64,000 bases of DNA from Bacteroidia bacterium (GCA_965216465.1 CBDCFW010000005.1:512001-576000); one strand, 5' to 3'; positions 37,143-63,373 are shown, counted from the first letter of the stretch. Notes: generated by a model not told the origin, from the sequence alone. Translations and numbers: made by a program.

Positions 37143-38489
37143 TTGGATAAATTTTCAGAAACCATAGCAGCTCCTGCTACTCCGTCTGGTATATCAGCAC
37201 TTGCAGTAGTTCGGGTTTCTGGGAATGATGCCATTTCCATCTTAAATAAATGTTTTACTAAGGACGTTGCTGACGCGAGTCCTTATACCATTCATTACGG
37301 TCATATCGTTGATGGCGAAACTAAGATTGATGAGGTATTGGTAAGCATTTTTAGAAATCCTCAATCGTATACTGGTGAAGATTCAGTTGAAATTTCTGGA
37401 CACGGTTCGCCGTACATTACCAAACGAATTCTTGAAACTTTAGTGAAATACGGAGCTCGAATTGCCGAGCCTGGTGAGTTCACTTTGCGTGCTTTTTTGA
37501 ATAAGAAGATTGATCTTGCACAAGCTGAAGCTGTGGCGGACATGATCTCGAGCAACAGCGAAGCAAGCTTGCAAATGGCTTTAAGTCAGATGCGTGGTGG
37601 CTTTAGTAATGATATTGCCTTCTTACGCCAAGAACTGATCGATTTTGCTGCTTTAATTGAGCTGGAAAATGACTTTGGTGAAGAGGATGTTGAATTCGCA
37701 GACCGCGATCGGTTGAAATCTCTGATTGACAAGCTGCTTACTCAAATTGAAAAGCTTCGCTCCTCCTTTGCAGCAGGGAATGTGTTAAAACATGGAATCA
37801 GTACGGTGATTGCCGGAAAGCCCAATGCCGGAAAAAGCACCTTGTTGAATGCATTGCTGAATGAAGAAAGGGCAATTGTATCTGATATTGAAGGAACCAC
37901 CAGAGACACGATTGAAGAAGTTTTTGTGTTGAATGGAATTCAATTCCGATTGATTGACACTGCTGGATTACGTGAAAGCTCAGACCATATTGAAAAGATT
38001 GGTGTAGGCAAAACCAAGGAGCATATGGAGAAGGCTGAGTTGATTGTCTATCTCTTCGATTTAAAAAGCACAACTCCCGAATCGTTGCAAGAAGAGATCA
38101 AAGATCTGCCTGATTCAAACGAATTGGTATTGGTCGCCAACAAAATTGACGGAGTAGAATACAAGACCAAAGATTGGCCAAAGAATACTGTCTTCATTTC
38201 TGCAAAACAGAAAGATATATCTCCACTAATTACAAAGCTTGAAACTATTGCCAACCAATATGAGTTTGGCAACGAGACGATTGTAAACAATGCTCGTCAT
38301 GCCGATGCTCTCACCAAGTCGTCTATCGCTTTAAATCAGGTCATTTCCGGCTTAGATTCAGGAATGACCAGCGACATGGTAGCTTTAGATATTCGAAACG
38401 CCTTGTATCAACTAGGATTAATCACCGGTGAGGTGACAAATGACGAGGTGTTGGATTCGATTTTTACGCGGTTTTGTATTGGTAAATGA
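37143..38489 (+). CDS. mnmE: tRNA modification GTPase MnmE (TrmE)
   Basis: TIAAPAT, SYTGEDSVE, GKPNAGKS, GTTRD, DTAG, C-terminal FCIGK. Confidence 0.98.
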   Translation: MDKFSETIAAPATPSGISALAVVRVSGNDAISILNKCFTKDVADASPYTIHYGHIVDGETKIDEVLVSIFRNPQSYTGEDSVEISGHGSPYITKRILETLVKYGARIAEPGEFTLRAFLNKKIDLAQAEAVADMISSNSEASLQMALSQMRGGFSNDIAFLRQELIDFAALIELENDFGEEDVEFADRDRLKSLIDKLLTQIEKLRSSFAAGNVLKHGISTVIAGKPNAGKSTLLNALLNEERAIVSDIEGTTRDTIEEVFVLNGIQFRLIDTAGLRESSDHIEKIGVGKTKEHMEKAELIVYLFDLKSTTPESLQEEIKDLPDSNELVLVANKIDGVEYKTKDWPKNTVFISAKQKDISPLITKLETIANQYEFGNETIVNNARHADALTKSSIALNQVISGLDSGMTSDMVALDIRNALYQLGLITGEVTNDEVLDSIFTRFCIGK

Positions 38490-38670
38490 GATATCCCTGA
38501 TTACACCTGCAAATACCATCACAATCCACTCCCACCAACAATTCTTAAAATTCTCGATTAGTTTACTCAAGTTTCTTCTGGTATCCACTGGTTAAGAGGA
38601 TGTTACAAAAATGTATCTCAGGATTCGTACCGAGATAAAAACCGTTACATTGGCAGTAAAAAGGTGAAAT

Positions 38671-38730
38671 GATGACATCTCCAGACAGCTTGTGACATCT
38701 CGAGATAGTTCAGGACATCCTTAGACATTA
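38671..38730 (+). repeat. Three imperfect 20-bp tandem repeats (GACA/GATA every 10 bp) upstream of the xis-like gene
   Basis: GACATC at 38674, 38694, 38714; GACA/GATA at 38684, 38704, 38724. Confidence 0.8.
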
Positions 38731-39089
38731 TGAGTTCAAACATGAGATTGAATAAGGTCTGTATTGAATGTGGTAACAACTACATCGCACAGACCACGGT
38801 AACTAAATACTGTTCGCACAAATGTGCGAGCAAATCATACAAAAGAAGAGTTCGAGATCAGAAGCTAAAAGAGTTCAATGAGAAGGAATTAACTATCCGA
38901 ACTCAGCTTATCAAACACCCTGAATTATCTGAAAGACCCGTCTTATCAATTGACGAGACCTGTACACTCATTGGGATAAGTAAACCTACATTCTTTAGAA
39001 TGAGTAGAGCAGGTCAGATCGAGACTACCAAGATTGGTAGAAGGGTCTTCGTATCACGTAAAGAAATCAAAAGAATATTTAAGTTATGA
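38730..39089 (+). CDS. Excisionase-like HTH protein with N-terminal Cys4 zinc-finger-like motif
   Basis: CIECG...YCSHKC; C-terminal LSIDETCTLIGISKPT...KIGRRVFV. Confidence 0.85.
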   Translation: MSSNMRLNKVCIECGNNYIAQTTVTKYCSHKCASKSYKRRVRDQKLKEFNEKELTIRTQLIKHPELSERPVLSIDETCTLIGISKPTFFRMSRAGQIETTKIGRRVFVSRKEIKRIFKL

Positions 39090-40204
39090 ATCACAAAGTA
39101 CACTTGCGTAAAACGCTAAACAGAACAGGAGAGAAATTCTGGTGGAAGTTAGACTTCGCACCTAAACTCAGAGATCCAGAAACAGGTAAACTAACTCGCT
39201 TCAAGGCATTAGGCATATTTACTTATGCCAAGGTCAGAACTCCATTTGAACGGCACCACAATCAGGAAATGAAGGTCCTTTTAGACAATACACTCCTGCA
39301 AGTCAAGATTAAGCTAGTAAATGACGAATTGGACTTCATCAAGGTAGACAACGGACAAAAGGACTTCCTTGAGTATTTTCTAGAACTAGCTGAAAAGAGA
39401 CGCACCAGTAAGTCCAATCACTCTAAGTGGATAATAGTACATAAATACCTTAAAGAGTTTGCTGGGTCAGTCCGTTTTAATGAAATAGACAGAGTTTTCG
39501 CTCAACGCTTTGGCGAGTACCTAAAGAACAAGCCTCACAGCAAAATCAAAGGCAAGACAATCTCAGCTAACTCAGCAGCATCCTATTTCTCCAAGTTCAT
39601 CTTTGCTTTGAAGCAAGGCTACAAGGATGGTTTTCTACCTAAGAATGTAGCTGCCGAGATTGACAGGATAAAGACTACTGAAACGAAACGCATCTTTCTA
39701 ACTCACGAAGAGGTATCTCTACTAATTGAAACTGAATGCTACGACACTATTCTAAAACGATGCTGCATCTTCATGACCTACACTGGAATGCGTGTTAGCG
39801 ATGCTGAAAGACTCAAATGGGGAGATATCGAATACAGTAAAGACGTCGGTTACTTTATACGATTCAGACATCAGAAGACTAAATCTGAGCAAACCCTACC
39901 GATTACAACTGAAGCTTACGAGCTTCTAGGGGATAGAGGTGAAGATGATGAACCTGTGTTCAAAAAATTTAAAAGACGATACCCGGAACTTAAACGATGG
40001 GTAGCTGCAGCCGGAATAAAAAAGAATGTGGGACTGCATACTTTTAGGCACACAGCGGCCACCCTCCTACTTAATGCAGGAGTGGCCATCTACACGGTAT
40101 CCAGGATCTTAAACCACAAAGACTTGAAAACTACAGCAGTTTATGCTAACTTACTAGACAAAACCAAGGCAGAGGCCGTAAGTAAGATTAGTTTTAAAAT
40201 ATGA
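39086..40204 (+). CDS. Tyrosine recombinase / site-specific integrase
   Basis: YTGMRVSD (R), QKTK (K), HTFRH (HxxR), LNH..LKTTAVY (H, Y). Confidence 0.95.
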   Translation: MNHKVHLRKTLNRTGEKFWWKLDFAPKLRDPETGKLTRFKALGIFTYAKVRTPFERHHNQEMKVLLDNTLLQVKIKLVNDELDFIKVDNGQKDFLEYFLELAEKRRTSKSNHSKWIIVHKYLKEFAGSVRFNEIDRVFAQRFGEYLKNKPHSKIKGKTISANSAASYFSKFIFALKQGYKDGFLPKNVAAEIDRIKTTETKRIFLTHEEVSLLIETECYDTILKRCCIFMTYTGMRVSDAERLKWGDIEYSKDVGYFIRFRHQKTKSEQTLPITTEAYELLGDRGEDDEPVFKKFKRRYPELKRWVAAAGIKKNVGLHTFRHTAATLLLNAGVAIYTVSRILNHKDLKTTAVYANLLDKTKAEAVSKISFKI

Positions 40205-40905
40205 CACCAACTGAGAGAGCCAAATTTGTTTTTGACGAGATTTTCCTAAAGTCCGATGGACAGTACCTTTTTCCAATATCTACATCTGAGCAGATGAGAT
40301 TAGAGATAAACAGATACTTGAAGGAAATAAAGACGAAATTGAATAGGACGATCTTCTTAGCAGAGCTTCTAAATCTTCTTGATCGGCAATACCTTGAAAG
40401 AATTCGGTTACAAGAGAGGGATATGTATGGTGTGATTCTTTCAAATCATGAAACAATACTAGCCCTAGAAGCCTGGTTAATTGACCTAATTGATACAACA
40501 CGACGAGAACAAAGCAGGAAGAAGACAAGAAAAGTCACAATCACTAAGGACGCTCAAATAAACCAGCCTGCATTTATTGATTTTCTTGAACATTACATAT
40601 TTGATTATGCAAAACGGGAAGATCTTCTGTTATTCTTCTCCTATCCGTACAAGAGGCCAAAAAATCAACTAAAACTTGCTGTTTCGATTCCTGCATTTGC
40701 ATATCTTATAGATCGTCTTGGAAAAACTGCAACAAGAGACTCGAAATGGCACGACTTAACTCAAGACAAAGTCCTAACCAGTACAACAGGAAAGCCTATA
40801 AACCGTGGTCACTTAGCTAATGCCAATAGTACTGGTAAAAAAAAGACAGAAATCTATTCGATTATTGATGAAAAAATGAAACTCATCAAGAAAAAACACT
40901 CATAA
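40201..40905 (+). CDS. Hypothetical protein coupled to the integrase
   Basis: 234-aa ORF whose ATG overlaps the integrase stop; no motif recognised. Confidence 0.6.
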   Translation: MTPTERAKFVFDEIFLKSDGQYLFPISTSEQMRLEINRYLKEIKTKLNRTIFLAELLNLLDRQYLERIRLQERDMYGVILSNHETILALEAWLIDLIDTTRREQSRKKTRKVTITKDAQINQPAFIDFLEHYIFDYAKREDLLLFFSYPYKRPKNQLKLAVSIPAFAYLIDRLGKTATRDSKWHDLTQDKVLTSTTGKPINRGHLANANSTGKKKTEIYSIIDEKMKLIKKKHS

Positions 40906-40967
40906 TTCAATCTGCTCTTAGTGTTCCAAATTTTATCTCTCATTCTCTGCCGTATTTCGAATGAAAT

Positions 40968-41306
40968 ATGTCAGAGATCACTGTCATACAACTCAGTCAA
41001 GAAGAACTAAGAGCTATTATTCGCAACGAAGTTTCAGCTATTCTCAAAGAGGAACTAAAGAACCTATCTGCATCATCAGGCACTAATGTTTTCTTGACTA
41101 TTGAACAGGCTGCTGAGTACATCTGCTTCTCCCCTGACCACCTACGAAAGATGTGTCAGCAGAGAAAGATTGTAGCTCACAAAGTTTCAAATAAGTGGCT
41201 ATTCAAAAAGTCAGATCTTGATGAGTTTGTATCTCAGGGCAGAATTTTCACTGATGTACAGATCTCCAACGCATCAGAAAGAATCATAAATAAGATTTTA
41301 CAATGA
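40968..41306 (+). CDS. Excisionase-family (HTH_17-like) DNA-binding protein
   Basis: FLTIEQAAEYI...HKVSNKWLFKKSDLDEFV. Confidence 0.88.
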   Translation: MSEITVIQLSQEELRAIIRNEVSAILKEELKNLSASSGTNVFLTIEQAAEYICFSPDHLRKMCQQRKIVAHKVSNKWLFKKSDLDEFVSQGRIFTDVQISNASERIINKILQ

Positions 41307-43159
41307 ACAGAAGAAAAATAGAGTTTAGTGCCAACAATCCAGGTATTAAACGCAATGAGATTGACACTACAGAAACGTTAGAGAATGTTGTTTCATACGT
41401 GAAAGGTAATGCATTTGCAGAGATTACGAAGCTGTATAGAAATGGAAAGGCAGGCAAAGATGAGCTGTTCCCTTACGCTATGTTCTCTGGTCTATTCTCC
41501 GAAAGAAAGGACGAAGCGCTAATTGAGCACTCAGGGCTTATTGCTATTGACATAGACAAGCTAGAAGATGTAGAAGAAGTATTTGATCAGATCTCAAAGG
41601 ATCCGCATACAGTATTCATGTATCGCACCCCTAGTTGGAATGGTTTAAAGGTTATCATCGCAATTGACATTAAAAAGAATACACATCAGGAATACTTCTC
41701 TGCACTTGAGAACTACTTTAAGATACAATTCGACATAGATATAGACAAAAGCTGTAAGAATGTGTCCAGAGCTGCATATCTGTGTTATGACCCTATTTGT
41801 TACGTCAACTATAATGCAGATGTCTTTAGAATTATAAAAAAGAAACCTCTTAAAGTAACTCCTCTATTCAGTCAACAAACCTACCTTGATGTAGAGCAGT
41901 GTATTATCAGTATTGAAGAACTCGAAATTGATCTGACCAGCACCTATGATCGTTGGTTCAAGATTGGTGCGGCGTTGGCCAATACATTTGGAGAAGAAGG
42001 ACGTGAGTTTTTCCAAAGGGTGTCTGCTTTTCATCCAGAATACGATCTCAAGAAATGTGATCAAAAATTCAGCGAGTGCCTAAAGTCCGATAACAGAACG
42101 GTAGGCATAGGTACTTTCTTTCATTACTGCAAAGTCGCTGACGTTCGATATAAAAAGAAGGAGAAGCAACTAGAATCCTTTGAACAACCTGTATTAGGCA
42201 AAGTCATCACGGCCAATCAACGCATTAAGAATGCTAAGTCAATGCCGCCGCTAACGGCCCTATTTGGACCATTCTGGCTCACAAGTCAGATCTGCATCTT
42301 GTTTGGCGATACTGGTTTGGGTAAGAGTAGTCTGATGGTACAGATCGCAGATAACATTAGTAAAGGAAAACGCTCTCTTGTCTTTCTATCTGACCAAGTT
42401 GAAAAGCAGAAAGTCCTGTTCGTTGATTTTGAGCTTTCAGATGCGCAGTTTGCAAGAAGGTATACGGATAGGAAAAACGCCTATGAGTTCAGTGACAACT
42501 TTCTCTTCTTGAACATCGATCTAACAGAGTACTATACTCAATCACACGACAAGTCTGATATTAGCTTTGTTGATTGGCTTTTCAGTTCAATAAAATCTGC
42601 TATCCAAGAAGAGGATGTTAAAGTTCTTATCATCGATAACATTACTTACCTTCATACACACTCAGCACAGGACACACAAGTAGCATTGGATCTTATGCGA
42701 TTGTTGAAGGAAGTAAAGGATGAACTGCAGATATCCATAGCAGTACTTGCTCACCCTCCAAAGCTTAAGCCAAACGAGTCTCTTACACTCAGTCATTTAG
42801 GAGGAAGCAAACACCTATCCAATTTCGCTGACTCAGTGTTTGTCCTTGGCAACAGCAACAATGGGACTAATATCAGGTACCTAAAACACCTTAAATCACG
42901 CGATGCTGAGATGTATTTCGACGCCAGCAATGTGATGACATTAGCACTATCAATGGTAGGCAATATGCTCAAGTTTGAAGTAGAAGGCTTTGCTGAAGAA
43001 TCGGATCACATTTCAGGGACGAAGGCTAAGGAGGACCAAAAGGAAAAGGTACTGGAACTGAAAAAGCAGGGGCTCTCATTGCGTAAGATTGCACAAGAGC
43101 TTGGCATCAGCCATATGAAAGTAAAACGCATCGTTGATCTTGATAAATACAGCAGGTAA
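41303..43159 (+). CDS. Primase-helicase: BT4734/VirE-N-like domain, PriCT-2-like domain, RepA/AAA_25-like ATPase, C-terminal HTH
   Basis: HSGLIAIDID, TPSWNGLKV, DKSCKNVSR; YDRWFKIGAAL; GDTGLGKS, LIIDNIT; GLSLRKIAQELGIS. Confidence 0.85.
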   Translation: MNRRKIEFSANNPGIKRNEIDTTETLENVVSYVKGNAFAEITKLYRNGKAGKDELFPYAMFSGLFSERKDEALIEHSGLIAIDIDKLEDVEEVFDQISKDPHTVFMYRTPSWNGLKVIIAIDIKKNTHQEYFSALENYFKIQFDIDIDKSCKNVSRAAYLCYDPICYVNYNADVFRIIKKKPLKVTPLFSQQTYLDVEQCIISIEELEIDLTSTYDRWFKIGAALANTFGEEGREFFQRVSAFHPEYDLKKCDQKFSECLKSDNRTVGIGTFFHYCKVADVRYKKKEKQLESFEQPVLGKVITANQRIKNAKSMPPLTALFGPFWLTSQICILFGDTGLGKSSLMVQIADNISKGKRSLVFLSDQVEKQKVLFVDFELSDAQFARRYTDRKNAYEFSDNFLFLNIDLTEYYTQSHDKSDISFVDWLFSSIKSAIQEEDVKVLIIDNITYLHTHSAQDTQVALDLMRLLKEVKDELQISIAVLAHPPKLKPNESLTLSHLGGSKHLSNFADSVFVLGNSNNGTNIRYLKHLKSRDAEMYFDASNVMTLALSMVGNMLKFEVEGFAEESDHISGTKAKEDQKEKVLELKKQGLSLRKIAQELGISHMKVKRIVDLDKYSR

Positions 43160-43161
43160 AC

Positions 43162-43390
43162 TGTAACAGCTGTAACAAAATCCAATAATGTTACAGTTTA
43201 ACTCTCACTCAAAAGCTAACTCATTGATTATATTCAATTTAGCTACTTGTGCGAAGTGTAACAAAAACTGTAACAAACGTTGTAACACAGGCTGTAACAC
43301 ACCGAGTTGTTACAAAATTGGAGCATCAAAAGAAGTGGCACAGGTGGCACAAAAGACTATAGAAATTAGGTGGAAGTGGTGGAAGCTGCA
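43162..43390. repeat. Iteron-like cluster, probable replication origin of the element
   Basis: TGTAACA at 43162, 43171, 43257, 43269, 43281, 43293; inverted TGTTACA at 43189 and 43308; GTGGCACA x2 and GGTGGAAG x2 downstream. Confidence 0.75.
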
Positions 43391-43503
43391 CTACGCCCGT
43401 TTGTTCATACTTCAATCTCAAATTCACAATAAAGAGTAGATTTGTAGTACTTCCAGCTACTTTGGAAATTCAAAGTAAATGGAAGAGTAAAATATTGAAG
43501 CGT

Positions 43504-43656
43504 TAGCTTGATCTCTTGTTATCGAAAACTGGTAACTTTCATTAAATCCACAAGAGTGATAGACAGACGCTCACGCTATGGCGTGGGCTGTGTTTATTTG
43601 TGGATTTGGGTATACCAGTACCTCGATAACGGTAAGCTACAGTTCCACGCTTTTTT
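43504..43656 (+). ncRNA. Candidate structured cis-regulatory RNA / leader
   Basis: Five nested complementary segments plus an alternative pairing followed by T6. Confidence 0.55.
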
Positions 43657-43700
43657 GTGTTGACTTTTTTCCTCAGAGGGACTGATGAGGGTAAAACAAC

Positions 43701-44741
43701 ATGAACTCAAAACTCAAATCCTCTATCCTATTAGTCGCACTATTAGTTTCTTCCTGCTCCATTGATTCGACCACTGAATCATCAAGCCCATATTCCGATT
43801 ACCTTCAATACTCAGAGAATCTGGCAAAGAATCTCTCATCTGAAAGAATTGAAACTCGTAACAATCTGATTAACTCACTGGATTCCAATAACACATTTAA
43901 GATGCTATTGTCAGAAGAAAAGGCGGACATCAATAACCTGATTCTAATCGATGCCATTGCCAAAGGAATAAAAACAATCAGCGACCAAGGCTTTACCATT
44001 CCATCAGAGACTCATAACAACATCGCTGCACTTGACGATGGGAAGGGTAAAATTCAATTCGTAGTAAAGGCAATTGGGCTAACACAAGAGGTTCAAGGAG
44101 GTCTAACTCCAGAACTTGTATCTATCTTTGAAAGATACCGAAAGGCATTCGGATACTACGGCGGACCAACCACGCAATACGATGCCAATAAGAACCTGAT
44201 TGGAGAGATAAAGGAGTCATATGATCTGACACCCATTTTTGGTGTCATCGATGGTAAGAACCCAAAAGTAATTGATGCAATAACTCAGGCCAAGATTGAT
44301 GGAATATCTAGCTGGAGTAACGAAGAGGATGCAATCTACTCATACCTATCGGATAGAAAGGCATACAATCAATACTTAGCCGATAATTACCCGAAAAGCA
44401 AGCATTACATTCAATACGACATTGAAATCTCAGCTAAGGAACTCTACGACGCTTACCAAGCTAACGAGGTAGCTGCAGACGAGCGATTCAAGAACAAACG
44501 AGTGCTTGTCTATGGTAAGATATCAGATATTGGTAAAGACATCCTCAATGATCCATATTTATCCCTAGGAGTTGGCTATCTTGAAAGTGTTACCTGCTAT
44601 TTTGATAAGGAGAGCAATTCTCATATTGCGTCTGTAAGTAAAGGACTGAAAATTGAGATAATTGGCACTATCAAAGGATCAGGGATGCTTGGTACTGGGG
44701 TAATTCTGAACAAATGTTCAATTTGGAGCATTAACCACTAG
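43701..44741 (+). CDS. Lipoprotein with C-terminal tRNA_anti-like OB-fold
   Basis: Lipobox LVSSC; ISAKELYDAYQANEVAADERFKNKRVLVYGKISDI. Confidence 0.8.
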   Translation: MNSKLKSSILLVALLVSSCSIDSTTESSSPYSDYLQYSENLAKNLSSERIETRNNLINSLDSNNTFKMLLSEEKADINNLILIDAIAKGIKTISDQGFTIPSETHNNIAALDDGKGKIQFVVKAIGLTQEVQGGLTPELVSIFERYRKAFGYYGGPTTQYDANKNLIGEIKESYDLTPIFGVIDGKNPKVIDAITQAKIDGISSWSNEEDAIYSYLSDRKAYNQYLADNYPKSKHYIQYDIEISAKELYDAYQANEVAADERFKNKRVLVYGKISDIGKDILNDPYLSLGVGYLESVTCYFDKESNSHIASVSKGLKIEIIGTIKGSGMLGTGVILNKCSIWSINH

Positions 44742-44762
44742 CTGCAATAAAAACATTCCTTT

Positions 44763-46139
44763 TCAATTAAACACTTTAGCAAGTTCTGCCGGATAAAAGT
44801 CCTTTACATCTTTCTGCGACATTCTTTTGAAATTAGATTCTCCATTTTCATTTATGCTTGCCTGAAATATAACAAAATCACTGTTGTAGCAGAGCATTGG
44901 ACTGTGAGTTGTAAAAATTATTTGACTAAGAGGATGTTCATCTGGCATTATCATTTTTTCAAGTAGATGCCTCAAGAGTTTGTATTGGTACTTAGGCGAT
45001 AAATTTAATTCCAACTCCTCAATTATTAGCACCTTTGGCCTCGATAATGAAACACGGAAAAGTAAGTAAAACAATTGTTGTATTCCTGTACCGTAAGATT
45101 CAATCGGTAGAATTTTTGAACCTGACACACTATTTTCAAACAGAATATTTATTTCATCTCTGATTTCACCAAATATCATTTCCATGCCCTTAGAAAATGG
45201 TGAATTCTGCTCTGATCGAACCTCAGCAGCATCTCCACCTGGATTAAATGATGACATTTCCTTGATAATACTTTGTAATCTATCGCGAGAAAATGGGTCA
45301 AGTGAAAATCGATGGACCCAACTCTTGAAATTCTTTGGACCAATTGATTCTGAAACATATACATTCTCATACGACTCACTTGTGAAGTACCTGTCGTTAT
45401 CAAGAAATAATACAGAATCATTTAGGAATGAAAGTATACCAGAAAAGACTTGAAACTTGTTCTCATGAATGAAAGGAGTAGTTGCAGTTGCGTCAACAAA
45501 ATATTCCTCACCATCAAATATCAGATGATTATACACTCCTACTTCCGTTAGTTTCATTGTAGCATCAAATTCTCCTAAACTGGTGATTTGTCCTTTAAAC
45601 CTAAACTGAACAGAATCCTTTTCCCCTGATTTGTTTGCATTTGAAATGGATCGATAAAATTCAGACTGCACTTCTGCTTCTTCTGACCCTTGACCGGCAG
45701 CCTTTGCTTCAACATTTAGTTGGTCGGATTGTGCTTTAGCAGCGGCAACTTGCTCATCATTGAAATACAAGCCCTTCATTTCGAGAATGAGTTTTTCATC
45801 AATCTCAACTAGTGTCTTAATTGGAATATCAACCCAAACCTCAAATTCAATTGGTGTTTCACGCTTCATATTGCGAAAAATAAAAGGCGCTCTATCTATT
45901 ATTCCATCCCACCAATCTGTATTGGGAAACTTTTCATTATCATCTTCAAAATCAAACTCTGTTGAGTGAGCTAATTTCTGTTTTTCAAGTTTCCTACTAA
46001 ACAACATCTCAATGAATTTCAACATATTAGATTTCCCACTGTTGTTAAACCCATATAACATGTTGACATTTGAAATCCATTTAATGTCTTGTTCTTTGAT
46101 ACTCTTAAAATTTTTAATTTTGATCCTTCTTATTTTCAT
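44763..46139 (-). CDS. ABC-type (AAA_15/AAA_21-like) ATPase with no fused nuclease
   Basis: IKNFKSI, Walker A GFNNSGKS, signature YGTGIQQ, Walker B LIIEELE, H-loop FTTHSP. Confidence 0.88.
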   Translation of the reverse strand: MKIRRIKIKNFKSIKEQDIKWISNVNMLYGFNNSGKSNMLKFIEMLFSRKLEKQKLAHSTEFDFEDDNEKFPNTDWWDGIIDRAPFIFRNMKRETPIEFEVWVDIPIKTLVEIDEKLILEMKGLYFNDEQVAAAKAQSDQLNVEAKAAGQGSEEAEVQSEFYRSISNANKSGEKDSVQFRFKGQITSLGEFDATMKLTEVGVYNHLIFDGEEYFVDATATTPFIHENKFQVFSGILSFLNDSVLFLDNDRYFTSESYENVYVSESIGPKNFKSWVHRFSLDPFSRDRLQSIIKEMSSFNPGGDAAEVRSEQNSPFSKGMEMIFGEIRDEINILFENSVSGSKILPIESYGTGIQQLFYLLFRVSLSRPKVLIIEELELNLSPKYQYKLLRHLLEKMIMPDEHPLSQIIFTTHSPMLCYNSDFVIFQASINENGESNFKRMSQKDVKDFYPAELAKVFN

Positions 46140-49078: not shown

Positions 49079-49104
49079 TAATTTATCTTAAACTTATGCT
49101 TTAA

Positions 49105-55000: not shown

Positions 55001-58000
55001 AGTCATAACTTTATCTGCTGCACCAATACCAATAGTAACAGTTTTTGTAACAGTGTCTTTACCCACTATGAGTTTGACTGTATATGACCCGTCACTAGCA
55101 TACGTGTGAAATGGATCTTGACGATATGAATCTGTTCCATCGCCAAACATCCAGTAATGTCCAGAATCGCAATAATTAAAGGTCTCAAACTGAATATCAG
55201 AACAGTTAATCGCAGTATAACTGAAATCAACATCAATACTATCTGACCAATAAACATATTTTGTGACAGAGTCAATACATCCAGATTGTAAGTTTGTCAC
55301 CACTGCCTTTATATAACTAGCGGTATCTGACCAAAACACATGAACTTTCTTGTTCTGATAATACTCATCTCCTCCATCAACTATCCAAATGACGCTATCT
55401 TCCTTGTTTTTATCAAAGTCAGTGTAGTACTCATACTCAATGGAGTTATCGCACAACACTTCCCTTCCATATATTTTTAATTCACCTATAAATCCAATTT
55501 CGACTTCTTGACTAATTGGATCTCCATCAACTATTAACACGACCGTGTATATACCTTCATCAGCATAAGTGTGACTGGGATTTTGAAGTTCAGAACTATC
55601 ACCATCACCAAAGAACCATTTAAACGAGTTCGCACAACAAGTCTTAGCTCTGAACTTGACTTCAAAGCAAGAAATTCTCTCAACAATAAAACCTTCATTG
55701 GTTAATAGGGGAGGATCTGCATCTATGAAGTTTGGTAAACCAACCTTACATATCCCTCCATCATTCCCGACATTTAATACTGGTCCAACAGCTTGAAATT
55801 CACATTCGTTGGTATTGGTAACACGCTCATTAGGTTTATTTACTACGGCTACATATGACTGATTATATGCTGTAACATATATCTTACCATCTGGGGCCAC
55901 CTGTAAAGCTCTGAAGTAACTTCCAATATCTTGCTCCTCAAACTCAGCTACAGCTCTCCTTGAACCGAAAACATCTTGACTCTGTAAATCATATTGATAC
56001 AGATAGTGATAGAAATTGGAGTCTATAATATTGCTTCCGCTTCCCTTATACTTTGCCCCGCTGATATACATCAGCTTACTATTTGGACTAAATGTTACTC
56101 CATACAGTCTATCACTGTTTTGAAGAGAGTCATTGAACTTTAATGTTAATGAGCCATCTGCACGACAGAATTCATACAAACTGTTCAATACCCAAACATA
56201 TAATCCGTCGGGCGAAAACTTGATAAATCCTGTATGAGAGCTATTTTGATTGGTATAAATGCTCTGTCGGTGCGAAAATCTTACCCCTGTGTCGCTGACC
56301 ACATAGAACTCAACATAATTAGTACCTCCAGAACCAGCAGGATTAGTCGTTAGTAGCCAGAAGGTACTGTCATCACATCGCTTGATAGCCGAAATTGCCT
56401 CACTAGGCCCAGCAAGATTACCTAAAGTATCTCGAATTGTGTCGTTTCGTAATGTAACCGATCCGTATTGAGTTCTTACTGGATTATAGACAATCAAGTC
56501 TATTAAATTTCTGTTAAATACACTCTGTAAGTTTCCAACAGAACCAACAAATGCACGTGTAAACAAATGCAATTTGCTGGTATCTGAATTATAAGGAATT
56601 ACGATCATACTCTGTGCACTGCTACTGCTTCCGTCGATTTCAGAATTTGTCATTGCCCTAAATCTGTGTCCATACACATCTAAACCATTAACCTCAGCAC
56701 TTGATACTGATTGACCTCCTGCATATGCCTTCAAATTCCCTGAACTATCACTATATGATGTGCTTCCTTCATAGGATTGAATGTTTGGAGCATTTGATCT
56801 TGGACCAGTAGAGCGTGTCACCTTGTTATCGTAGAAATGAAGACCAGCATGGTCTCCAAAAAGCCAATTTGCCTTAGTACTTTCCATTGGACTGCACTCA
56901 ATAACCTGAACGTTATAAGGGTAGACATAAGTTTTATTGCTTGAACCCACACTTATTGTAAGTTTTATGTCGTAAGTTCCTGTATCAATATTTGCTACTG
57001 TATATTGATATAAGCCAGAACCAATAGTTGAGCTATAACTTGTTTGCCATTTCTTTTTGTACTCCCATTTATAGGTCACCCCAGTTCCAAGATTATATGC
57101 TTCAAACCAAGCATCATCTCCGTAGCATACTAAGTTAGATCCAACAAACCTTGCAACCCAAAAACAACTGTCGCTATCTACGGTATTTACACTTCTAGGA
57201 TCTGCCAATTGACTTCGATAGGTGTGTAGTGTTGAGAGCATCACACTCAATTGGTCATTGGTGAATTGCTTGCGACAAGCATCTGAGGTGTAACTCATCA
57301 AATTGTATACTGCATCATAATCAGAACTATCTGGACAAGAGTTGAGCGTAGGGTTACAATTAGTTATTTCACCTTTACTTTGAGCTACATCACAGCATAG
57401 ATCCCCACTATCTTTACAGTTAGGATATGTACTGCCAGAACATTCTTGCTCCCATGGATGGAACAGACCTAAATAATGACCGACCTCATGAGCTAAAAGA
57501 TCTCCTTCATTTCCGTTCCGTATTGGAGTTCCGTAATTGTAATGTCCAAATACGTCATACTCCATTACTGTACCTTGAGCAATACTCCCTATCGTAAAAG
57601 GATAACTTGAATATCCATCTACGGGTGTAGTACCTCCTGTTTTACTCAACACCTTATTAATCACATAAATATTCAGATACTTACTTTCATCGATATTGTA
57701 TTCTTGCCGAATTAAATCAAAACTGTCCTGATGAAGACTCATTTGATAAAATCGAGATGATGAATGCCGATATATTGTATCCAAAAAGAATTGTATTCCT
57801 GTATTTATACTGTTAATGTCATCGGCAAACACATTGTTCAATTGATTGATCTGGTTTACTATTTGAGAACTATTGATATTCTCATTTGATCCAATGTTAT
57901 TATTAGGGTGATGTACTACGTGAACGATTACAGGAATAATATAATTAGTTTCTACACATCCATTACCTGTGCCACCTGTTAAGCTAAATATACCTGAGGG

Positions 58001-58186
58001 TATATTATGTGGCCCAAGGTTTGTTGATCTCCAATGATTAACACTTGCACTATGAGCAGATTTCACAGAGGGCTCAACTTTGTTATTCTCAATCAAAAGA
58101 TCAAGCTGCTCATCGCTAGCACATGGATTTTGAGAAAAAACAGAAAAACAGATTAAAAGAAAAAGAATGGATAATAGTGATTTCAT
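52064..58186 (-). CDS. 2040-aa T9SS-secreted M43 (pappalysin-like) zinc metalloprotease with beta-propeller and PKD domains
   Basis: IPVIVHVVH, HEVGHYLGLFH, NLMSY Met-turn; repeated WxFGDG...PSHTY; C-terminal LAPNPT...LSAGLY. Confidence 0.88.
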   Translation of the reverse strand: MKSLLSILFLLICFSVFSQNPCASDEQLDLLIENNKVEPSVKSAHSASVNHWRSTNLGPHNIPSGIFSLTGGTGNGCVETNYIIPVIVHVVHHPNNNIGSNENINSSQIVNQINQLNNVFADDINSINTGIQFFLDTIYRHSSSRFYQMSLHQDSFDLIRQEYNIDESKYLNIYVINKVLSKTGGTTPVDGYSSYPFTIGSIAQGTVMEYDVFGHYNYGTPIRNGNEGDLLAHEVGHYLGLFHPWEQECSGSTYPNCKDSGDLCCDVAQSKGEITNCNPTLNSCPDSSDYDAVYNLMSYTSDACRKQFTNDQLSVMLSTLHTYRSQLADPRSVNTVDSDSCFWVARFVGSNLVCYGDDAWFEAYNLGTGVTYKWEYKKKWQTSYSSTIGSGLYQYTVANIDTGTYDIKLTISVGSSNKTYVYPYNVQVIECSPMESTKANWLFGDHAGLHFYDNKVTRSTGPRSNAPNIQSYEGSTSYSDSSGNLKAYAGGQSVSSAEVNGLDVYGHRFRAMTNSEIDGSSSSAQSMIVIPYNSDTSKLHLFTRAFVGSVGNLQSVFNRNLIDLIVYNPVRTQYGSVTLRNDTIRDTLGNLAGPSEAISAIKRCDDSTFWLLTTNPAGSGGTNYVEFYVVSDTGVRFSHRQSIYTNQNSSHTGFIKFSPDGLYVWVLNSLYEFCRADGSLTLKFNDSLQNSDRLYGVTFSPNSKLMYISGAKYKGSGSNIIDSNFYHYLYQYDLQSQDVFGSRRAVAEFEEQDIGSYFRALQVAPDGKIYVTAYNQSYVAVVNKPNERVTNTNECEFQAVGPVLNVGNDGGICKVGLPNFIDADPPLLTNEGFIVERISCFEVKFRAKTCCANSFKWFFGDGDSSELQNPSHTYADEGIYTVVLIVDGDPISQEVEIGFIGELKIYGREVLCDNSIEYEYYTDFDKNKEDSVIWIVDGGDEYYQNKKVHVFWSDTASYIKAVVTNLQSGCIDSVTKYVYWSDSIDVDFSYTAINCSDIQFETFNYCDSGHYWMFGDGTDSYRQDPFHTYASDGSYTVKLIVGKDTVTKTVTIGIGAADKVMTGVTVNCDDSTSFQYSLPYNSGFAYQWSAIGNSSLIDSVNIAYAVWSRNGQIQCIITDSVTGCVDTISLDVKKKIDSQLDFDFSVTNCTQVQFNTEEYCNLSKKWLFGDGDTSLLEDPSHSYNSQGIYTVSLIVDGDTVSKQLSLEPLPAPNILGDRQICYTNEQYTYSATPIRLGESFNWSVSNGTLVRILTDTSILTEFTTNGSIELISTSSFGCSDTSVIQVTVHTPIQNTISVDSTIFCQVDSNSVIHGSDPSGGTGNYSYQWYSSSNGTDYSIVSGATNRDFYLSPSFSTYYRRLVKSGDCESYSNSVNVARVFESNTIWTDEIEFCTGGDSIHLKGNSLYSNIGNNSLTYVWESSSDNASWSIMKTGSSGTGYTNHTFYDTILHQDTISFYRRKLDIPYFTCVTYSNVLEIKPGIYITKQPEDVLLCDPSSDQIQFDLELRNLTSTQAVIKAEFRASGDPDFTELGTVNGMTYTYTSNKSSSYNLTDTFRFKVTTSCGTVYSRKALLFTNIQGDIWIRDSWKDNGTEPNPDSSHYDIVRSPDIWNRVNSDNGLVHQQCEFKNLSPNQLGIKVRNRASVPTVRTPLYLYWTLGQINNEEWDLRWLDTIGNQFWNDPLSDSFPMGSRINSAAIMVPPIAPGDSLNIFYDWYPPNPAHYYPKDANGNKAGDFDRLSVCILARLEHCEDYPHRMSRNEAFGVHAKYNAIGNNNIATKNIWVVDSDTSNLVDNDNDGEIDYMGGSWIGFGRLSSVNGGLVSICIEDMDSNFFSNWDFAIRVEERLISPMIACLPQNSHIVHMGGDIFAFAQIGNYCINNLSLPDNDVYFFAPMFDPANGWDNIDDEYYELGIEQRDASNNVVGAGSVSIDNTNGEFDDLDEQLYTVEIQESPHLLLAPNPTQAMLSVELDEVAKGWHAGQTGTIVVANNYGVSLVTETNVAAENITHLDLSALSAGLYNVRFEIGGTVYYRYLVKVAQ

Positions 58187-58349
58187 ACGGTAAGGAATTT
58201 TAGGTTTTCAATCTTGAGTTTTCAATTCAAAGACTGTGTCACGAATCTAACATGAATTATTCACCTCTCCAAACCTAGGTCTGTTTGCTTTATTTTTGAA
58301 GTAAATTTTGAAAGCATCTATTCTACACCTTCGATGGTCTATTGAAAAT

Positions 58350-60470
58350 ATGAAAGTTCTGCAAATGATACTTGTGGTTTTTATCTCTATTGGTAACGTA
58401 AAGTCTCAATGTCCAGAAACCAACCCTCAATGCAATGCTGCGAATCATTGGGTTTTTGGAACCAATATTCACCTCGAGTTTGAAGGTGACAGTGTCCTTC
58501 AACATCGAATTTCCGGCGTCGATTGGTTGGAAGGGACAACGAGTTTCACTAAAGACAGTTCGCTATGGTTCAGTTTTGAACAAAGAGCTATCGTAAACAA
58601 TAATACAAATGCACAAATGATACCTTACGAGTATTATGGCTCTGAATCATCAACTCAAGGCATTTTGTTTCTTCACCATCCAGAAGATTCTGTTTATTTC
58701 TCTTTTTTATCTGAAGGGTCTAGTGGCGGAGGATTCACAAGTAAAACACTATTCACTGCAGTTGGCTTGATCGATAGTTTTATAAGATTGCCATTCCATG
58801 GAGGTCAAAAACAACATGCTGTAAACCATCAAAACTCCAGAGACATTTGGTACGCAAATCATGCAACAACAGGTGATAGTACTTTCTTTTTTCTCATCAA
58901 AAAAGATGGAATGTTAGAGTGTCCTGTAGTTACTCACTCAGACAATGATTATTGGACATGGGCTGCAACTCAAGGACAAATGAAATTTAGTCCTGACGGA
59001 AGGTATTTAGCAGAAGCTGCAAATAATAATCCCTTTTCATTTGCAGTCTATAAAACTAATTTAGAATATCCTAGGTTAGATAGTGTTTATGTGTTTTCTA
59101 AAGGTTTTGGGCCTGATTATAGTAAAAACTGGCCTTTTGGGTTAGAATTTAGCCCTAGTGGGAAAAAGGTTTATCTACTTGCAGGAAGACAAGATCCTGA
59201 TTTTCCTCCAGTGCTATATCAAATTGAAATAGACAGTCTTCAAAATGACACACCAGGAATTGGCAACACTTGGCATTCGCTTGATAGTTTTTTTAATGTT
59301 TATGAGGGTTGTTTACAACTCGCTCCAAATGGCAAAATTTATCACTCTATCCCTTATAAGAACTATTTAGGAGTAATTAACCGCCCTGACTCTTCAGGGC
59401 TAAAATGCAACTACATTCGTCAAGGTCTTCCTCTTGATAGTGGAGGTCAAGGGCAGTTTGGTGTTCCGACATTCAATCAAAGCTATTTTTATACTCCAGC
59501 GATAGACTTTGCTTATGAAGAGAACTGCCAGACTAATGAATATGAGTTTTGGGGAAGAGACACGTTTGGAGCTACCAATCACTTATGGCTTTTTGAAAAG
59601 GGGCCAATTACAGATACGATGAGAAACAAATCAGGATTGTATTTATTTAAAGAGACCGGAGTTTACAAGGTGACCTACTTTGCATCAAAAGGAAGTAGGT
59701 CAGATACAATTACTAAAAGTCTTACTGTTCGACCAAAACTTAGCCCTAACTTTCTTGGGCCAGATACTTTTTATTGTAAAGGAGAAAGCTTTACATACAC
59801 CTTATCTGCTCCGAAAGATCTTCACTGCATCCATTGGAACGGTGAAGAACCGTACAGCAATCTATTTGGAGACACTATGATTGGTTATGACAATTTCTAT
59901 GGGCATATACAAAAAAATAGATCATATGTAATAGATACAGCTGGAACGTACACAGCACGGATTACTAACAAAACATTTTGCAGAGCTTGGGACACTGTAA
60001 AGGTTATTGAACATCCATTGCCTCAAACACCTGTAGTTACTCGTAGTGGGAATTGGATTGAAACTAAAACAAACGCAAACCAATACAGGTGGTATTTTAA
60101 TGGTCAATTGTTAGAAGGGGAAAGCAACAAAACCATCAATCCAGACACCAATGGTTATTATCAAGTTCAGTTGATAACTGAATATGGTTGTGAAAGTGTT
60201 TTAAGTGATAGTTTTTTGGTAGACTTTGCTAGGATTGATCGCATAGACTTAAATACTGACTTTAGAATTTATCCAAATCCAAGCGTAGGCACTTTTTACG
60301 TTGAAGGAATTGTAAACGACTTCAAGATTGAAATCTTCGATATGCATGGTAGATTAGTGTTGCAACAGCAAAACAACCCAAGATTCAGATTGAATGTTGC
60401 AGGAAGCTACACTGTTCGAATAGTTACCTCTGAAGGCGCGCACTCATCAATAGTGGCTGTTATTGATTAG
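58350..60470 (+). CDS. T9SS type A-sorted beta-propeller/PKD protein
   Basis: Probable start 58350; NHWVFG, MKFSPDG, LQLAPNGKIY, GVPTF; C-terminal IYPNPS...IFDMHGRLV. Confidence 0.8.
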   Translation: MKVLQMILVVFISIGNVKSQCPETNPQCNAANHWVFGTNIHLEFEGDSVLQHRISGVDWLEGTTSFTKDSSLWFSFEQRAIVNNNTNAQMIPYEYYGSESSTQGILFLHHPEDSVYFSFLSEGSSGGGFTSKTLFTAVGLIDSFIRLPFHGGQKQHAVNHQNSRDIWYANHATTGDSTFFFLIKKDGMLECPVVTHSDNDYWTWAATQGQMKFSPDGRYLAEAANNNPFSFAVYKTNLEYPRLDSVYVFSKGFGPDYSKNWPFGLEFSPSGKKVYLLAGRQDPDFPPVLYQIEIDSLQNDTPGIGNTWHSLDSFFNVYEGCLQLAPNGKIYHSIPYKNYLGVINRPDSSGLKCNYIRQGLPLDSGGQGQFGVPTFNQSYFYTPAIDFAYEENCQTNEYEFWGRDTFGATNHLWLFEKGPITDTMRNKSGLYLFKETGVYKVTYFASKGSRSDTITKSLTVRPKLSPNFLGPDTFYCKGESFTYTLSAPKDLHCIHWNGEEPYSNLFGDTMIGYDNFYGHIQKNRSYVIDTAGTYTARITNKTFCRAWDTVKVIEHPLPQTPVVTRSGNWIETKTNANQYRWYFNGQLLEGESNKTINPDTNGYYQVQLITEYGCESVLSDSFLVDFARIDRIDLNTDFRIYPNPSVGTFYVEGIVNDFKIEIFDMHGRLVLQQQNNPRFRLNVAGSYTVRIVTSEGAHSSIVAVID

Positions 60471-60626
60471 CTGTGTAGAGATTTCTCTTTTGCTACAAAC
60501 CATAGTCAACGTTACTCGTCATGCAGATGCTTTAAGAGCCAAATTCCGTGTACCTTCAGTGTACATCAGGCGAACACACACAAGTGCATCTTTCTGATTA
60601 TCCGATGCTTGCGAGATTTTGTTACT

Positions 60627-60644
60627 TTCTGTATTGGGAAGTGA
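60627..60644 (+). repeat. 18-bp copy of an mnmE 3' end (att-like)
   Basis: TTCTGTATTGGGAAGTGA encodes FCIGK*, versus TTTTGTATTGGTAAATGA at 38472-38489. Confidence 0.8.
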
Positions 60645-61000
60645 TCTGCCTGGGATCTACTGGAGATATCACGACGAAATGATTCTAAAAATCTGATGGT
60701 TTGAAGTTCGATTTACTTTCTGTGATAGAAAGCCGCAATAAAATACTTAATTACCTTGCCCCAAAAAACTAACTCATGTTTGAGGAGTAAAAGCCCTAAA
60801 CATTTGGGTATTAACATATACAGCTTAAGGGATAACAGCTTTGGGGAAACATATCCTTTTAACATTCTACAAAGCTTTATTTCTCATTTTGTCTATCTTA
60901 GATGCGGCAGAACCTGATTCGCCGGCCCTAAATGTTGTGAAGATTTCTCATCTTCGATGTTTGGTCTTGCCAGGTGCTAGACACCACTTAAAATCTAAGC

Positions 61001-62385
61001 ATGAAAAAACTAATAATTTATTTTATAGCGATTGTCCTTATATCTTGCAAAGGACAGACTTCAGAAAATATACCAGCAGACTTGCTGATTAAAAACATTA
61101 CCTTGATTGATGGAACCGGAAGCAGCGCACGCTATAATCAAAACATCTACATAAGGGAAGGCCGAATTGTACAAATCGATACACTTACCAATTACTCAGC
61201 TGCGGATGCAGTTGTGGATGGTACAGGAAAGTATTTGATTCCAGGTCTTTTTGACAATCATTATCATCTGCATCGCGACTCTGCCGATCATCCTAGAATG
61301 CTTAAGCAACTTATTCACTTTGGAGTGACAAATGTGTTTATACCGGGAGGCTCACAGGTTCCTTACCCTACCCTGCTTCGAATCGATTCTCTTGAAACCA
61401 ATAATCTAGTAACTTCTCCTAAAATTTGGTATACCAGTCCCTATGTTACCCTAGAAGGTGCACACCCTATGAAGACTGCACCACATATAAAATGGCGGAA
61501 TGGAATTAACGTCTATATTTTGAAGGATAGTTCAACCATACCTAAAATAATAAGTGATGCCAAAGCAAATGGAGCCATTGGAATAAAAATAGAGATCGAA
61601 GACGGTCCTTTTCCGCCATTTGTTGAACGCATGGATACCGCATTGATTCGCAAAATATCTGAACAAGCTCATGCTAACAACCTTTTACTAGCTTCACATA
61701 TCAGTGATATGGAAGAAGTTAGATTAAGTGTAGAGCATGGTGTTGATGCCATAATGCACTTTGTGGATGCACCGATTGACTGGGAAAATGATCTAGACCT
61801 ATTTATGGAAATCAAAGAAAAGAATATCTCATGGGTAACTACTTTGAATATAGGCAATTTCCTTTACTATCCATTTCATCCGGAGTGGTTAGATACCAAA
61901 GAATGGGAGGTGTTTGACATTGAGAGAGAGGAGTTACGGGCAAATCAAGAGCAAACAAAGCAATTGGCTATTAATATCATAACAGGATATTTAAATATGG
62001 ATCTTGAAGAATGGGAAAACCATGTTTCGCCAAGGTTTAATGACGTACACAAACTAGATTCTCTTGGTAAAACATTGTACTTGGGACCGATCCGGGTTCT
62101 GTCACAGCGTATAATATAACGGGGCTCAATGTCCATGAAGAAATGCAGCACTATCAAAAAGGAGGGATGAACCCATTACGAATAATAAAATGTGCCACAC
62201 TTAATGCAGCAATCATGTTAGGCGTTCAGGAAGATTATGGAACCATAGAAGTAGGAAAGCATGGCAATATGGTTGTTCTACACGAAAATCCTTTAGAAGA
62301 CATTTCCAACACTTTATCTATAGATGTTGTAATAAAGAATGGAGAAGTACAAGAAAGAATTACAAATGCTAATGCTACTAATTAA
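61001..62385 (+). pseudogene. Amidohydrolase-family lipoprotein split by a frameshift near 62070
   Basis: IPGLFDNHYH in ORF 61001-62119; the alternative frame continues NIVLGTDPG...VHEEMQ...ATLNAA...GTIEVGK to 62385. Confidence 0.8.
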
Positions 62386-62569
62386 TAGTGGTTAAGGAGA
62401 CAAATCAAAAATCCGTGCAAAGCTGGAAGAACCTTGAGAAAAATGCCATACTTTTCATATACGATCCGTTTGGGTTCTGTTGGATCTGTTAACTCTTCCT
62501 ATCACTAAAAAAAATTAGACCACACCAATAATACTGACGGTTTTTCATTTTTGCGATTAGTTTTGCCGA

Positions 62570-63271
62570 ATGCCTAGACTACTTCTTCTCTTCGTCTTTC
62601 CATTCTTCATAGGTTGTGCCTCTCAACGTGGTTTTAAACCCGCAGACTCTTACAGATGTACGGTTTATAGTTACACCCATTTCTTTCGTGAGTTGCCTGA
62701 AAATGAGCGCTATATAGACAAAACAATGGATTATCAGAATGGTCACCTAATCAGCGAACAAGCCTTCGGGTTCGATGGTGACACAGGAGATCTAAAGGTT
62801 TACCACTACGATTCAAGGGGACTATTAGACTCGGTTATATGGCACCGGCCAGATGTAATCATCCGTATGGAATATTACTATAAGGAAAGTGAGCTTCACG
62901 AAGCATTCAATGTATATTTTGGCAAACGGGATCTAACAGAACGCCATATCAGAACAGACTCTTCTCACGAAGTGATGCACTACTTGGGAGGTCTTTTTGC
63001 AAACCGTGCTTTTCACTACTATAATGAAGAAGGTCAGAAAATACGGACACAGTTTATCAGTCCTGAAGGCAATGACTATGGCTATAAACTTTACCGTTAT
63101 AATGAACAAGGAAAATTATCTGAGATAATAGACTACAATAGCAAAGGGGATCTGAGTGAGACTTACACTTATTCTTATGACAAACGTCAAAATCTTCTTT
63201 GGGAAATCATCACGGATGGTAAAGGGAAACTAATCACAAAAAAGAAATTCGAATACAGTAATTCCAAGTAA
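62570..63271 (+). CDS. YD/RHS-like repeat lipoprotein
   Basis: Lipobox FIGC; YHYDSRG, YYNEEG, YRYNEQG, YSYDKRQN repeats; TAGTTTTG at 62558-62565. Confidence 0.65.
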   Translation: MPRLLLLFVFPFFIGCASQRGFKPADSYRCTVYSYTHFFRELPENERYIDKTMDYQNGHLISEQAFGFDGDTGDLKVYHYDSRGLLDSVIWHRPDVIIRMEYYYKESELHEAFNVYFGKRDLTERHIRTDSSHEVMHYLGGLFANRAFHYYNEEGQKIRTQFISPEGNDYGYKLYRYNEQGKLSEIIDYNSKGDLSETYTYSYDKRQNLLWEIITDGKGKLITKKKFEYSNSK

Positions 63272-63272
63272 G

Positions 63273-63373
63273 ATGGAAGCTATAGACATTCGAATCGCCT
63301 TGTACAGTTAGGGTTAATCCCCGTGAAGTGACTAAAGATGAGGTCATGGATTCTATCTTTACTCGGTTTTGTA
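63273..63373 (+). pseudogene. Diverged fragment of an mnmE 3' end (att-associated)
   Basis: Aligns to 38376-38478 with 17 substitutions and two 1-nt deletions by manual count. Confidence 0.9.

Follow-up and report, generated by a model that had tools for sequence, protein, structure and literature searches.

Modules accumulated at the 3′ end of mnmE in a marine Bacteroidia bacterium: probable serial integration followed by integrase loss

Known accretions at gene ends and the mnmE locus

Tandem accretion with decayed, integrase-less members is textbook knowledge for the integrative and conjugative elements (ICEs) of Firmicutes and for the ssrA islands of Dehalococcoides, and the island SGI1 uses the last 18 bp of trmE/mnmE as its target. 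Here we describe an array of modules situated 3′ of mnmE, which codes for a tRNA modification GTPase, in a 64,000-nt stretch of DNA from an uncultured marine Bacteroidia bacterium (GCA_965216465.1, CBDCFW010000005.1:512001-576000; this whole stretch is called the window, and positions are counted from its first letter). We consider it likely that the array arose by serial site-specific integration at mnmE followed by integrase loss, and that it is an accretion of one intact element and of remnants resembling cis-mobilizable elements (CIMEs) rather than an integron.

The accretion of ICEs or of integrative and mobilizable elements (IMEs) with CIMEs has been laid out in the part of an IME review that deals with it, where ICESt1 and ICESt3 of Streptococcus thermophilus serve as examples (PMC5704250). 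The mnmE locus resembles these cases, as they are described there, in being a tandem pile-up at the 3′ end of one gene, in having presumably older members that lack integration genes and keep att sites, and in that composite excision would be possible. By contrast, its host belongs to another phylum, its target is mnmE, its integrase is of the SAM_5 type of Bacteroidota, no conjugation or relaxase genes were seen in its first module, and mobilization in cis would here be a prediction. The ssrA islands of Dehalococcoides, according to the passages of PMC3146451 devoted to them, are also arranged in tandem and bounded by the gene end or by a direct repeat of ~20 bp; their integration module, carried by 16 of 31 islands, adjoins attL, and each repeat is immediately preceded by a conserved motif. 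The junctions in the window are comparable to that description (PMC3146451), with ACT before the core and a conserved motif in the P arm, although the Dehalococcoides islands rely on a serine recombinase and a tmRNA target, while a tyrosine integrase and the end of a protein-coding gene are involved here.

In Gammaproteobacteria, SGI1 and MGIVchHai6 integrate at the 3′ end of trmE (as stated in a passage of PMC8409611), and tandem islands at trmE in Vibrio and Proteus are, in the words of a passage of PMC7449626, “not a rare occurrence”. The element in the window sits at the same end of the same gene, but it belongs to another host phylum, has no IncC-linked mobilization genes (family scans of module 1 gave no transfer-related matches) and is not assigned to that family. 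As the target is shared with these SGI1-type islands, the comparison suggests that unrelated hosts, and perhaps unrelated integrases, converged on an ultra-conserved stretch of 18 nt. Nothing that we found in the open-access literature describes mnmE as an attachment site in Bacteroidota. The site and its family of excisionase-integrase elements are, apparently, undescribed and phylum-wide; the mechanism itself is already known.

Attachment site, junctions and their recurrence in relatives

The window was compared with 80 mnmE loci (L001-L080), found by a scan with MnmE and taken from one genome per species. In L001-L037 and L040, MnmE is 67-83% identical to that of the window (72-83% for L001-L037 by themselves) and the upstream synteny is conserved, and the remaining loci belong to more distant Bacteroidota. 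Homologues of neighbouring genes were counted only at E ≤1e-5 with a query coverage >30%, proteins were assigned by Pfam, NCBIfam and PHROG scans, and relics were searched for in 51700-64000 by tblastn. The junctions were compared by pairwise local alignment, as a four-way MAFFT alignment gave no information. The features on which the argument depends are as follows.

37143-38489, plus strand: mnmE, intact, 448 aa, ending in FCIGK-stop; Pfam TrmE_N (6.9e-42), MnmE_helical (4.1e-51) and MMR_HSR1 (7e-26)
38472-38489, plus strand: attL core, the final 18 nt of mnmE, TTTTGTATTGGTAAATGA
38490-51780: module 1, 13.3 kb, the sole module with recombination and replication genes
38490-38729, plus strand: P′ arm of module 1, with GGTGAAATGAT at 38663-38673 and three direct repeats of GACATCYNNAGAYA at 38674, 38694 and 38714, directly before the helix-turn-helix (HTH) gene
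38730-39089, plus strand: excisionase-family HTH protein, 119 aa, with a Cys-rich N-terminus; Pfam HTH_17 (9.1e-9), TIGR01764 excise (8.8e-7), PHROG 66 (excisionase/regulator)
39086-40204, plus strand: tyrosine integrase, 372 aa; Pfam Phage_integrase (PF00589, 9.4e-24) and Phage_int_SAM_5 (PF13102, 7.4e-17)
51777-52020, plus strand: junction J2, a degenerate core TTCTGTATTGTAGTCTGA (51781-51798), then a P′-arm-like relic that ends in a block of ~70 nt (51950-52020)
51781-60626: module 2, 8.8 kb
60497-60644, plus strand: junction J3, composed of an mnmE-like fragment (60497-60543), a P arm carrying CGTGTACCTTCAGTGTACATCA ~77 nt upstream of the core, ACT and then a perfect 18-mer TTCTGTATTGGGAAGTGA (60627-60644)
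60627-63373: module 3, 2.7 kb
60645-60745, plus strand: shortened P′-arm relic of module 3, TCTGCCTG and a second copy of the ~70-nt block (60675-60745)
63253-63373, plus strand: junction J4, a pseudo-copy (121 nt, ~80% identity, two deletions of 1 nt each) of the 3′ end of mnmE (38356-38478); it ends in TTTTGTA and lacks the rest of the 18-mer

In the 75 loci whose mnmE end is present, the 18-mer that codes for FCIGK and the stop (TTYTGYATHGGNAARTRA) is kept there, a few variant bases aside, and all 18-mer counts are based on these loci (76 rows were tabulated, and L060 is cut within the 18-mer). In the whole window, on both strands, its consensus TTYTGTATHGGNAARTRA has matches without mismatch only at 38472 and 60627. 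Further copies with up to one mismatch were found in 8 of the 75 loci, nine copies overall, all of them downstream of mnmE, on its strand and 1.9-9.5 kb away, with the second 18-mer itself at 1.9-7.4 kb; in the same loci and at the same threshold, there were none on the opposite strand and none in 671 kb of upstream sequence on either strand. Additionally, homologues of the HTH protein, the integrase or both lie 200-300 nt past mnmE in 18 of the 80 loci, which include Chitinophagales, Cytophagales, Saprospiraceae, Rikenellaceae and Alistipes; with these groups and the marine Bacteroidia, use of the FCIGK-stop end as an attachment site appears to be widespread. An integration site at a gene end, an intact target gene and direct repeats of the gene end are all present here and in 8 of 75 other loci. 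The view that the end of mnmE is a genuine and recurrent attachment site in Bacteroidota is supported by these observations.

In module 1, the integrase gene starts 597 nt past the mnmE stop. Homologues of the HTH protein adjoin mnmE in 14 of the 80 loci, and the integrases that follow mnmE in relatives are 34-40% identical to that of module 1. Relatives share the architecture Arm-DNA-bind_5, SAM_5 and Phage_integrase and have generic names only, and integrase homologues at 46-58% identity also exist; tblastn against phage and plasmid collections returned generic integrases only (29-38%), with no informative context.

An earlier note on this DNA had described modules stacked in tandem at the mnmE 3′ end, with copies of that end at 51781, 60627 and 63373 and a single integrase, in the first module. 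This description stands, as all three copies are present, repeats and gene content agree, and 51700-64000 contains no integrase domain (Pfam) and no integrase or HTH relic (best tblastn E 0.3). The block of ~70 nt that the note saw at the first two junctions was also recovered: it starts with AGCGAAATGATT, and a 27-nt degenerate pattern derived from it matches only 51950 and 60675, with 0 matches expected. The fragment ending in TTTTGTA at 63373 exists too, although it is 121 nt and not 101 nt long, because 63253-63373 aligns with mnmE 38356-38478.

At 51781, the sequence reads TTCTGTATTG, then TAGTCTGA, then ATCTGCCTG, and J2 as a whole comprises a contiguous core of 10 nt and ~240 nt of arm-like sequence. 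In an nhmmer search, J2 matched 60639-60742 (E 1e-10) and two further copies in L028. RNAalifold found no consensus structure in four copies of the block, which makes the block more likely to be a site at the DNA level than an RNA.

Upstream of the core of J3, the mnmE-like fragment 60497-60543 is recognizable by the motif TIVNxxRHADA, and the P arm shares GTACCTTCAnTGTAC, ~77 nt before the core, with L016 and L028. Repeats of TTTGTACCT, which are similar to this motif, occur in the arms of L020, L021, L023, L038, L041, L065 and L080, and paired GTACC repeats are present in L065 and L080 at about -55 from the core. In most downstream copies of the core, ACT directly precedes it. The window, L016 and L028 are 58-63.5% identical over the 100 nt that precede the core, as compared with a mean of 46.6% and a maximum of 53.2% in 200 shuffles; the homologous P arms are at 18368-18480 in L028 and 18603-18714 in L016, and all three were found again by nhmmer, but they had trained the model. 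The homology of J4 to mnmE stops exactly at TTTTGTA, and this junction is 76.3% identical to the window's own mnmE tail and ≤72.8% identical to the tails of 34 relatives. J4 is probably the oldest displaced gene end.

The P′ arms of integrase-bearing relatives follow a common layout. At ~130-170 nt past the core there are paired repeats of the TTTGTACCT or TTGTTGCYAA type, followed by GGYGAAATNAT and then by three or four short direct repeats directly before the HTH start; module 1 shows this arrangement of motif and repeats as well. The blocks of J2 and J3 open with a motif of the GGYGAAATNAT type and stop at the point expected for an HTH start, which gives them the look of P′ arms that have lost their genes. 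In the comparison of the P′ arm of module 1 with the sequence upstream of J2, J3 and J4, shared arm-type words were not above shuffles, and matches to GACATCYNNAGAYA beyond 38674-38727 were at chance level only. Two minor features of these arms concern coding potential. The GGYGAAATNATG motif, which occurs in the window (38663-38729) and in the P′ arms of L020, L021 and L023, could start a short upstream open reading frame (ORF) before the HTH gene; in J2, J3 and L028, such an ORF from the block would start with MIL(K/E)I.

Among the eight loci with segments enclosed by the 18-mer, seven carry cargo without an integrase domain and the eighth, L065, has a split integrase. In L016, only integrase residues 4-52 remain, directly after mnmE (E 5e-9; N-terminal relic at 11545-11691). 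The relic in L016 and the split gene in L065, as read from their sequences, are direct signs of integrase loss. The enclosed cargo of the seven integrase-less loci is the following (T9SS, type IX secretion system).

L016, 11347-20864: two successive integrase-less segments bounded by the 18-mer, an RND efflux operon (7.4 kb) and then a Fic-domain gene (2.1 kb)
L026, L027 and L061: single large T9SS proteins
L028: regulators and hydrolases
L002 and L080: small cargo

In different species, several segments bounded by the 18-mer at mnmE carry large T9SS-secreted proteins as their only or chief cargo (L026, L027 and L061, and also 52064-60470 in the window). In L016, the ~28 nt that follow both downstream cores are alike (GCCGAAGWATTGGCATAGTG).

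A parallel to the window was found in L028, with an MnmE identity of 71%. This locus contains a J2-like sequence (17194-17394; 70.6% over 204 nt, E 2e-17) with the same degenerate form of the core, and a P arm and core like those of J3 (73% over 93 nt) in the same order as in the window, plus two further copies of the block. The spacing between the two junctions is 8.8 kb in the window versus ~1.3 kb in L028, and the cargo between them is wholly different. Since the four-fold degenerate sites of three genes shared by the window and L028 are only 23-36% identical, that is, saturated, the non-coding ends J2 and J3 must be either constrained or far younger than the genomes. Of all the observations, this parallel speaks most for integrase-less modules with mobility retained, in cis or in trans, and it fits CIMEs carried in composite excisions equally well. 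After mnmE, the stretch 11318-19546 of L028 holds relics of cores or arms at five positions or more (11429, ~12461-12646, 17198, 18464 and 19363); the core at 18464 is followed by a fourfold tandem repeat of 11 nt (AGTCAAGCCCT), and the last block abuts a gene with homologues that also lie downstream of mnmE in L011 and L022.

The proposed order of integration and the competing explanations

What was observed directly is the set of repeats, the genes of each module, a site that recurs in other species and integrases that decay in relatives; serial integration would account for these observations as follows. The 18 nt at the mnmE end would be the chromosomal attachment site of a family of Bacteroidota integrative elements that carries an excisionase-like HTH gene and an arm-binding tyrosine integrase adjoining attL. 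Each incoming element would recombine at the mnmE-proximal site, supply a new gene end and leave a P-core-P′ junction behind. Module 1 would be the youngest element and still intact, and modules 2 and 3 would be older ones that were pushed away from mnmE and lost their recombination genes, keeping arm and core relics together with their cargo. The integrase and the HTH protein might still excise module 1, and the integrase could conceivably use J2 or J3 as alternative right ends, thereby co-mobilizing modules 2 and 3 in cis. By analogy, this mechanism best fits the three-step scheme already published (PMC5704250), in which integration is followed by decay to a CIME and by a new integration at the gene-proximal site. 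In fact, module 2 lies between J2 and J3 and has no integrase, as expected of a CIME, which has att sites at both ends and no integration or transfer genes; module 3 is bounded by J3 and by the truncated J4. As for derivation by decay, the window modules keep only P′-arm-like sequence, and relatives show an integrase relic (L016) and a split integrase (L065).

Several observations weigh against serial integration with integrase loss, or at least limit it. The nearest relatives share only 72-83% MnmE identity, so that the comparison is one above strain level. The core of J2 matches at 14 of 18 positions (four mismatches), which is background level by itself, and J2 is consequently validated only through its flanks, which are homologous to the 60627 junction and to L028 (E 2e-17). 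The gradient of decay is not monotonic, as the 18-mer of J3 is perfect though distal to the degenerate J2. Modules 2 and 3 retain no integrase or HTH relic, so only their arm-like sequence speaks for an origin as full elements. The P′ arm of module 1 is unlike the arms of J2 and J3 save for the short motif GGYGAAATGAT; because of this lack of detectable similarity, the resident integrase may not recognize the older junctions. Composition (GC content and tetranucleotides of the modules versus the 38-kb core) is not discriminating and gives no foreign mark. Finally, the chromosomal right flank is outside the window, which leaves the end of the array undefined.

A second explanation would regard the integrase-less modules as a mobile family of their own, that is, as non-autonomous cassettes with conserved left and right ends that are inserted and excised, in trans or in cis, by mnmE-specific integrases, so that the locus would be a gene-capture platform with the logic of an integron. 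We consider it unlikely. Both ends of module 2 do recur in order in L028, with different cargo between them and despite saturated synonymous sites, each of the four block copies stops at the place expected for an HTH start, and the segments of L026, L027 and L061 hold a single gene; but the same data fit CIMEs carried in composite excisions, the integrases of L016 and L065 are decaying in place, and such ends were found in just two genomes of the 81 sequences searched. It is doubtful that a horizontally mobile cassette family exists, with a left end made of the degenerate core and ~240 nt of P′-like sequence and a right end made of ~100 nt of P arm and the 18-mer. If it did, the mnmE 3′ end would be a phylum-wide gene-capture platform of Bacteroidota for T9SS-secreted proteins, efflux pumps and defence genes, convergent with integrons and mechanistically unlike them. 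The likeness to integrons, which the earlier note had already drawn, consists of an array of gene-carrying units at one site beside one tyrosine recombinase. It does not hold further, as the integrase is an ordinary arm-binding one, the junctions are direct repeats rather than attC hairpins, the genes of module 2 are divergent and the integrases of relatives decay; moreover, unlike integron cassettes, the units in the window are multi-gene and of mixed orientation. An assignment to the integron integrases (IntI type) was rejected, with scores of 73.6 bits for TIGR02249 (cut-off 265) and 43.9 for NF011946 (cut-off 435). So were attC sites, since the junctions repeat the mnmE end directly, with arm-like flanks, and no inverted repeat was seen there in a repeat scan; nor has the shared block a consensus fold.

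It is quite improbable, in our opinion, that only module 1 is element DNA and that modules 2 and 3 consist of resident genes, with J3 and J4 as scars of imprecisely lost elements or of a local duplication of the mnmE end. The T9SS proteins, the amidohydrolase and the lipoprotein of these modules are housekeeping-like content typical of the lineage, the 720-aa protein of module 2 has many relatives at 45-52% in marine Bacteroidia, the composition of the modules resembles that of the core, and J4 is closest to the window's own mnmE tail, all of which such a reading would explain. However, because the target is the end of mnmE, a junction of P arm and core at 13-25 kb from it implies that the DNA in between came by integration. 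Furthermore, proteins of modules 2 and 3 are found after mnmE in none of the 80 loci at the thresholds used, the flank of the relatives is absent from the window, and J2 and J3 carry element-type arm sequence that exists in other genomes. The possibility that the internal repeats are chance matches within one 25-kb island can be regarded as already refuted. Short AT-rich cores are indeed common, as an 11-mer with up to one mismatch occurs 10 times in the window versus 4.3 expected, but the 64 kb contain no other 18/18 match than that at 60627 on either strand (beyond the mnmE end itself), and chance accounts neither for the 121-nt mnmE relic nor for the 27-nt pattern with 0 matches expected, nor for the homology across genomes (E 2e-17).

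Cargo of the modules and the surroundings of mnmE

The remaining genes of module 1 are listed below.

40968-41306, plus strand: second excisionase-family HTH gene (family scans)
41303-43159, plus strand: PrimPol/PriCT-2/AAA_25 primase-helicase (family scans)
43701-51690, mixed strands: module 1 cargo (family scans), including a lipoprotein with a tRNA_anti-like OB fold (Sie-like PHROG)
44763-48900, minus strand: three genes, for a D12 N6-adenine methyltransferase, a GHKL ATPase with a BbrUII/HgiDII-like N-terminus and an AAA_15/21 ATPase (AriA/OLD/GajA-like)
49190-51690: three ORFs without family assignment

From their families, the second HTH gene and the primase-helicase (40968-43159) are taken to be the replication module of the element. 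The trio on the minus strand has the appearance of a restriction or defence system within module 1, and as a whole it matched no single named PADLOC system. Relaxase, mobilization and conjugation families were absent among the ORFs of module 1 in the Pfam, NCBIfam and PHROG scans, in which five ORFs have no assignment; a relaxase, which (or else an oriT) marks an IME, was consequently not seen in these scans.

Modules 2 and 3 have the following cargo.

52064-60470: cargo of module 2, genes divergently oriented
52064-58186, minus strand: M43 metallopeptidase/PKD/T9SS-tail protein, 2040 aa (Pfam/NCBIfam)
58308-60470, plus strand: T9SS-tail protein, 720 aa (Pfam/NCBIfam)
61001-63271: cargo of module 3
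61001-62119 (372 aa) and 62143-62385 (80 aa), plus strand: amidohydrolase (Xaa-Pro dipeptidase-like), split by a frameshift, in different frames
62570-63271, plus strand: lipoprotein, 233 aa

The family of the 720-aa protein is common in marine Bacteroidia, with a best foreign match of 75% identity and most matches at ~50%; there was no near-identical copy elsewhere that would indicate a recent transfer. The two pieces of the amidohydrolase cover profile positions 3-89 (N-terminal) and 335-397 of 398 (C-terminal); the gene is a pseudogene within module 3. With cargo such as this, the mnmE site can be seen as a predictable hot spot that accumulates defence genes, T9SS cargo and efflux pumps, and it would be a practical anchor for locating islands in fragmented metagenome-assembled genomes.

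Downstream of mnmE there is a variable hot spot, as a flank that is conserved in relatives lies at distances that differ (+1.2 to +6.7 kb for one gene, +4.7 to +8.0 kb for a second) and none of the window ORFs of ≥90 aa is homologous to it. Consequently, the array may run beyond the end of the window. The 12-mer TTGTGACATCTC, a repeat unit of the P′ arm of module 1 (38690-38701), occurs again at 63915-63926, 540 nt past J4 and near the window end; given this copy, the array could continue past 64000, and a chance match is also possible. A scan for tRNA and tmRNA genes found none, and Rfam gave no match in 36-64 kb with E ≤1.

Contigs often end close to mnmE: in 21 of 76 cases the end lies <1.5 kb after the stop and in four more it is inside the gene, and in 12 of 80 it lies <1.5 kb before the start. 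The breaks after mnmE are only suggestive, hinting at assemblies that break at strain-variable islands. On the other side of the gene, a small lipoprotein gene (36607-37134) lies between the conserved upstream gene and mnmE; as only some relatives have it, at 35-46% identity, the 5′ side of mnmE is also somewhat variable.

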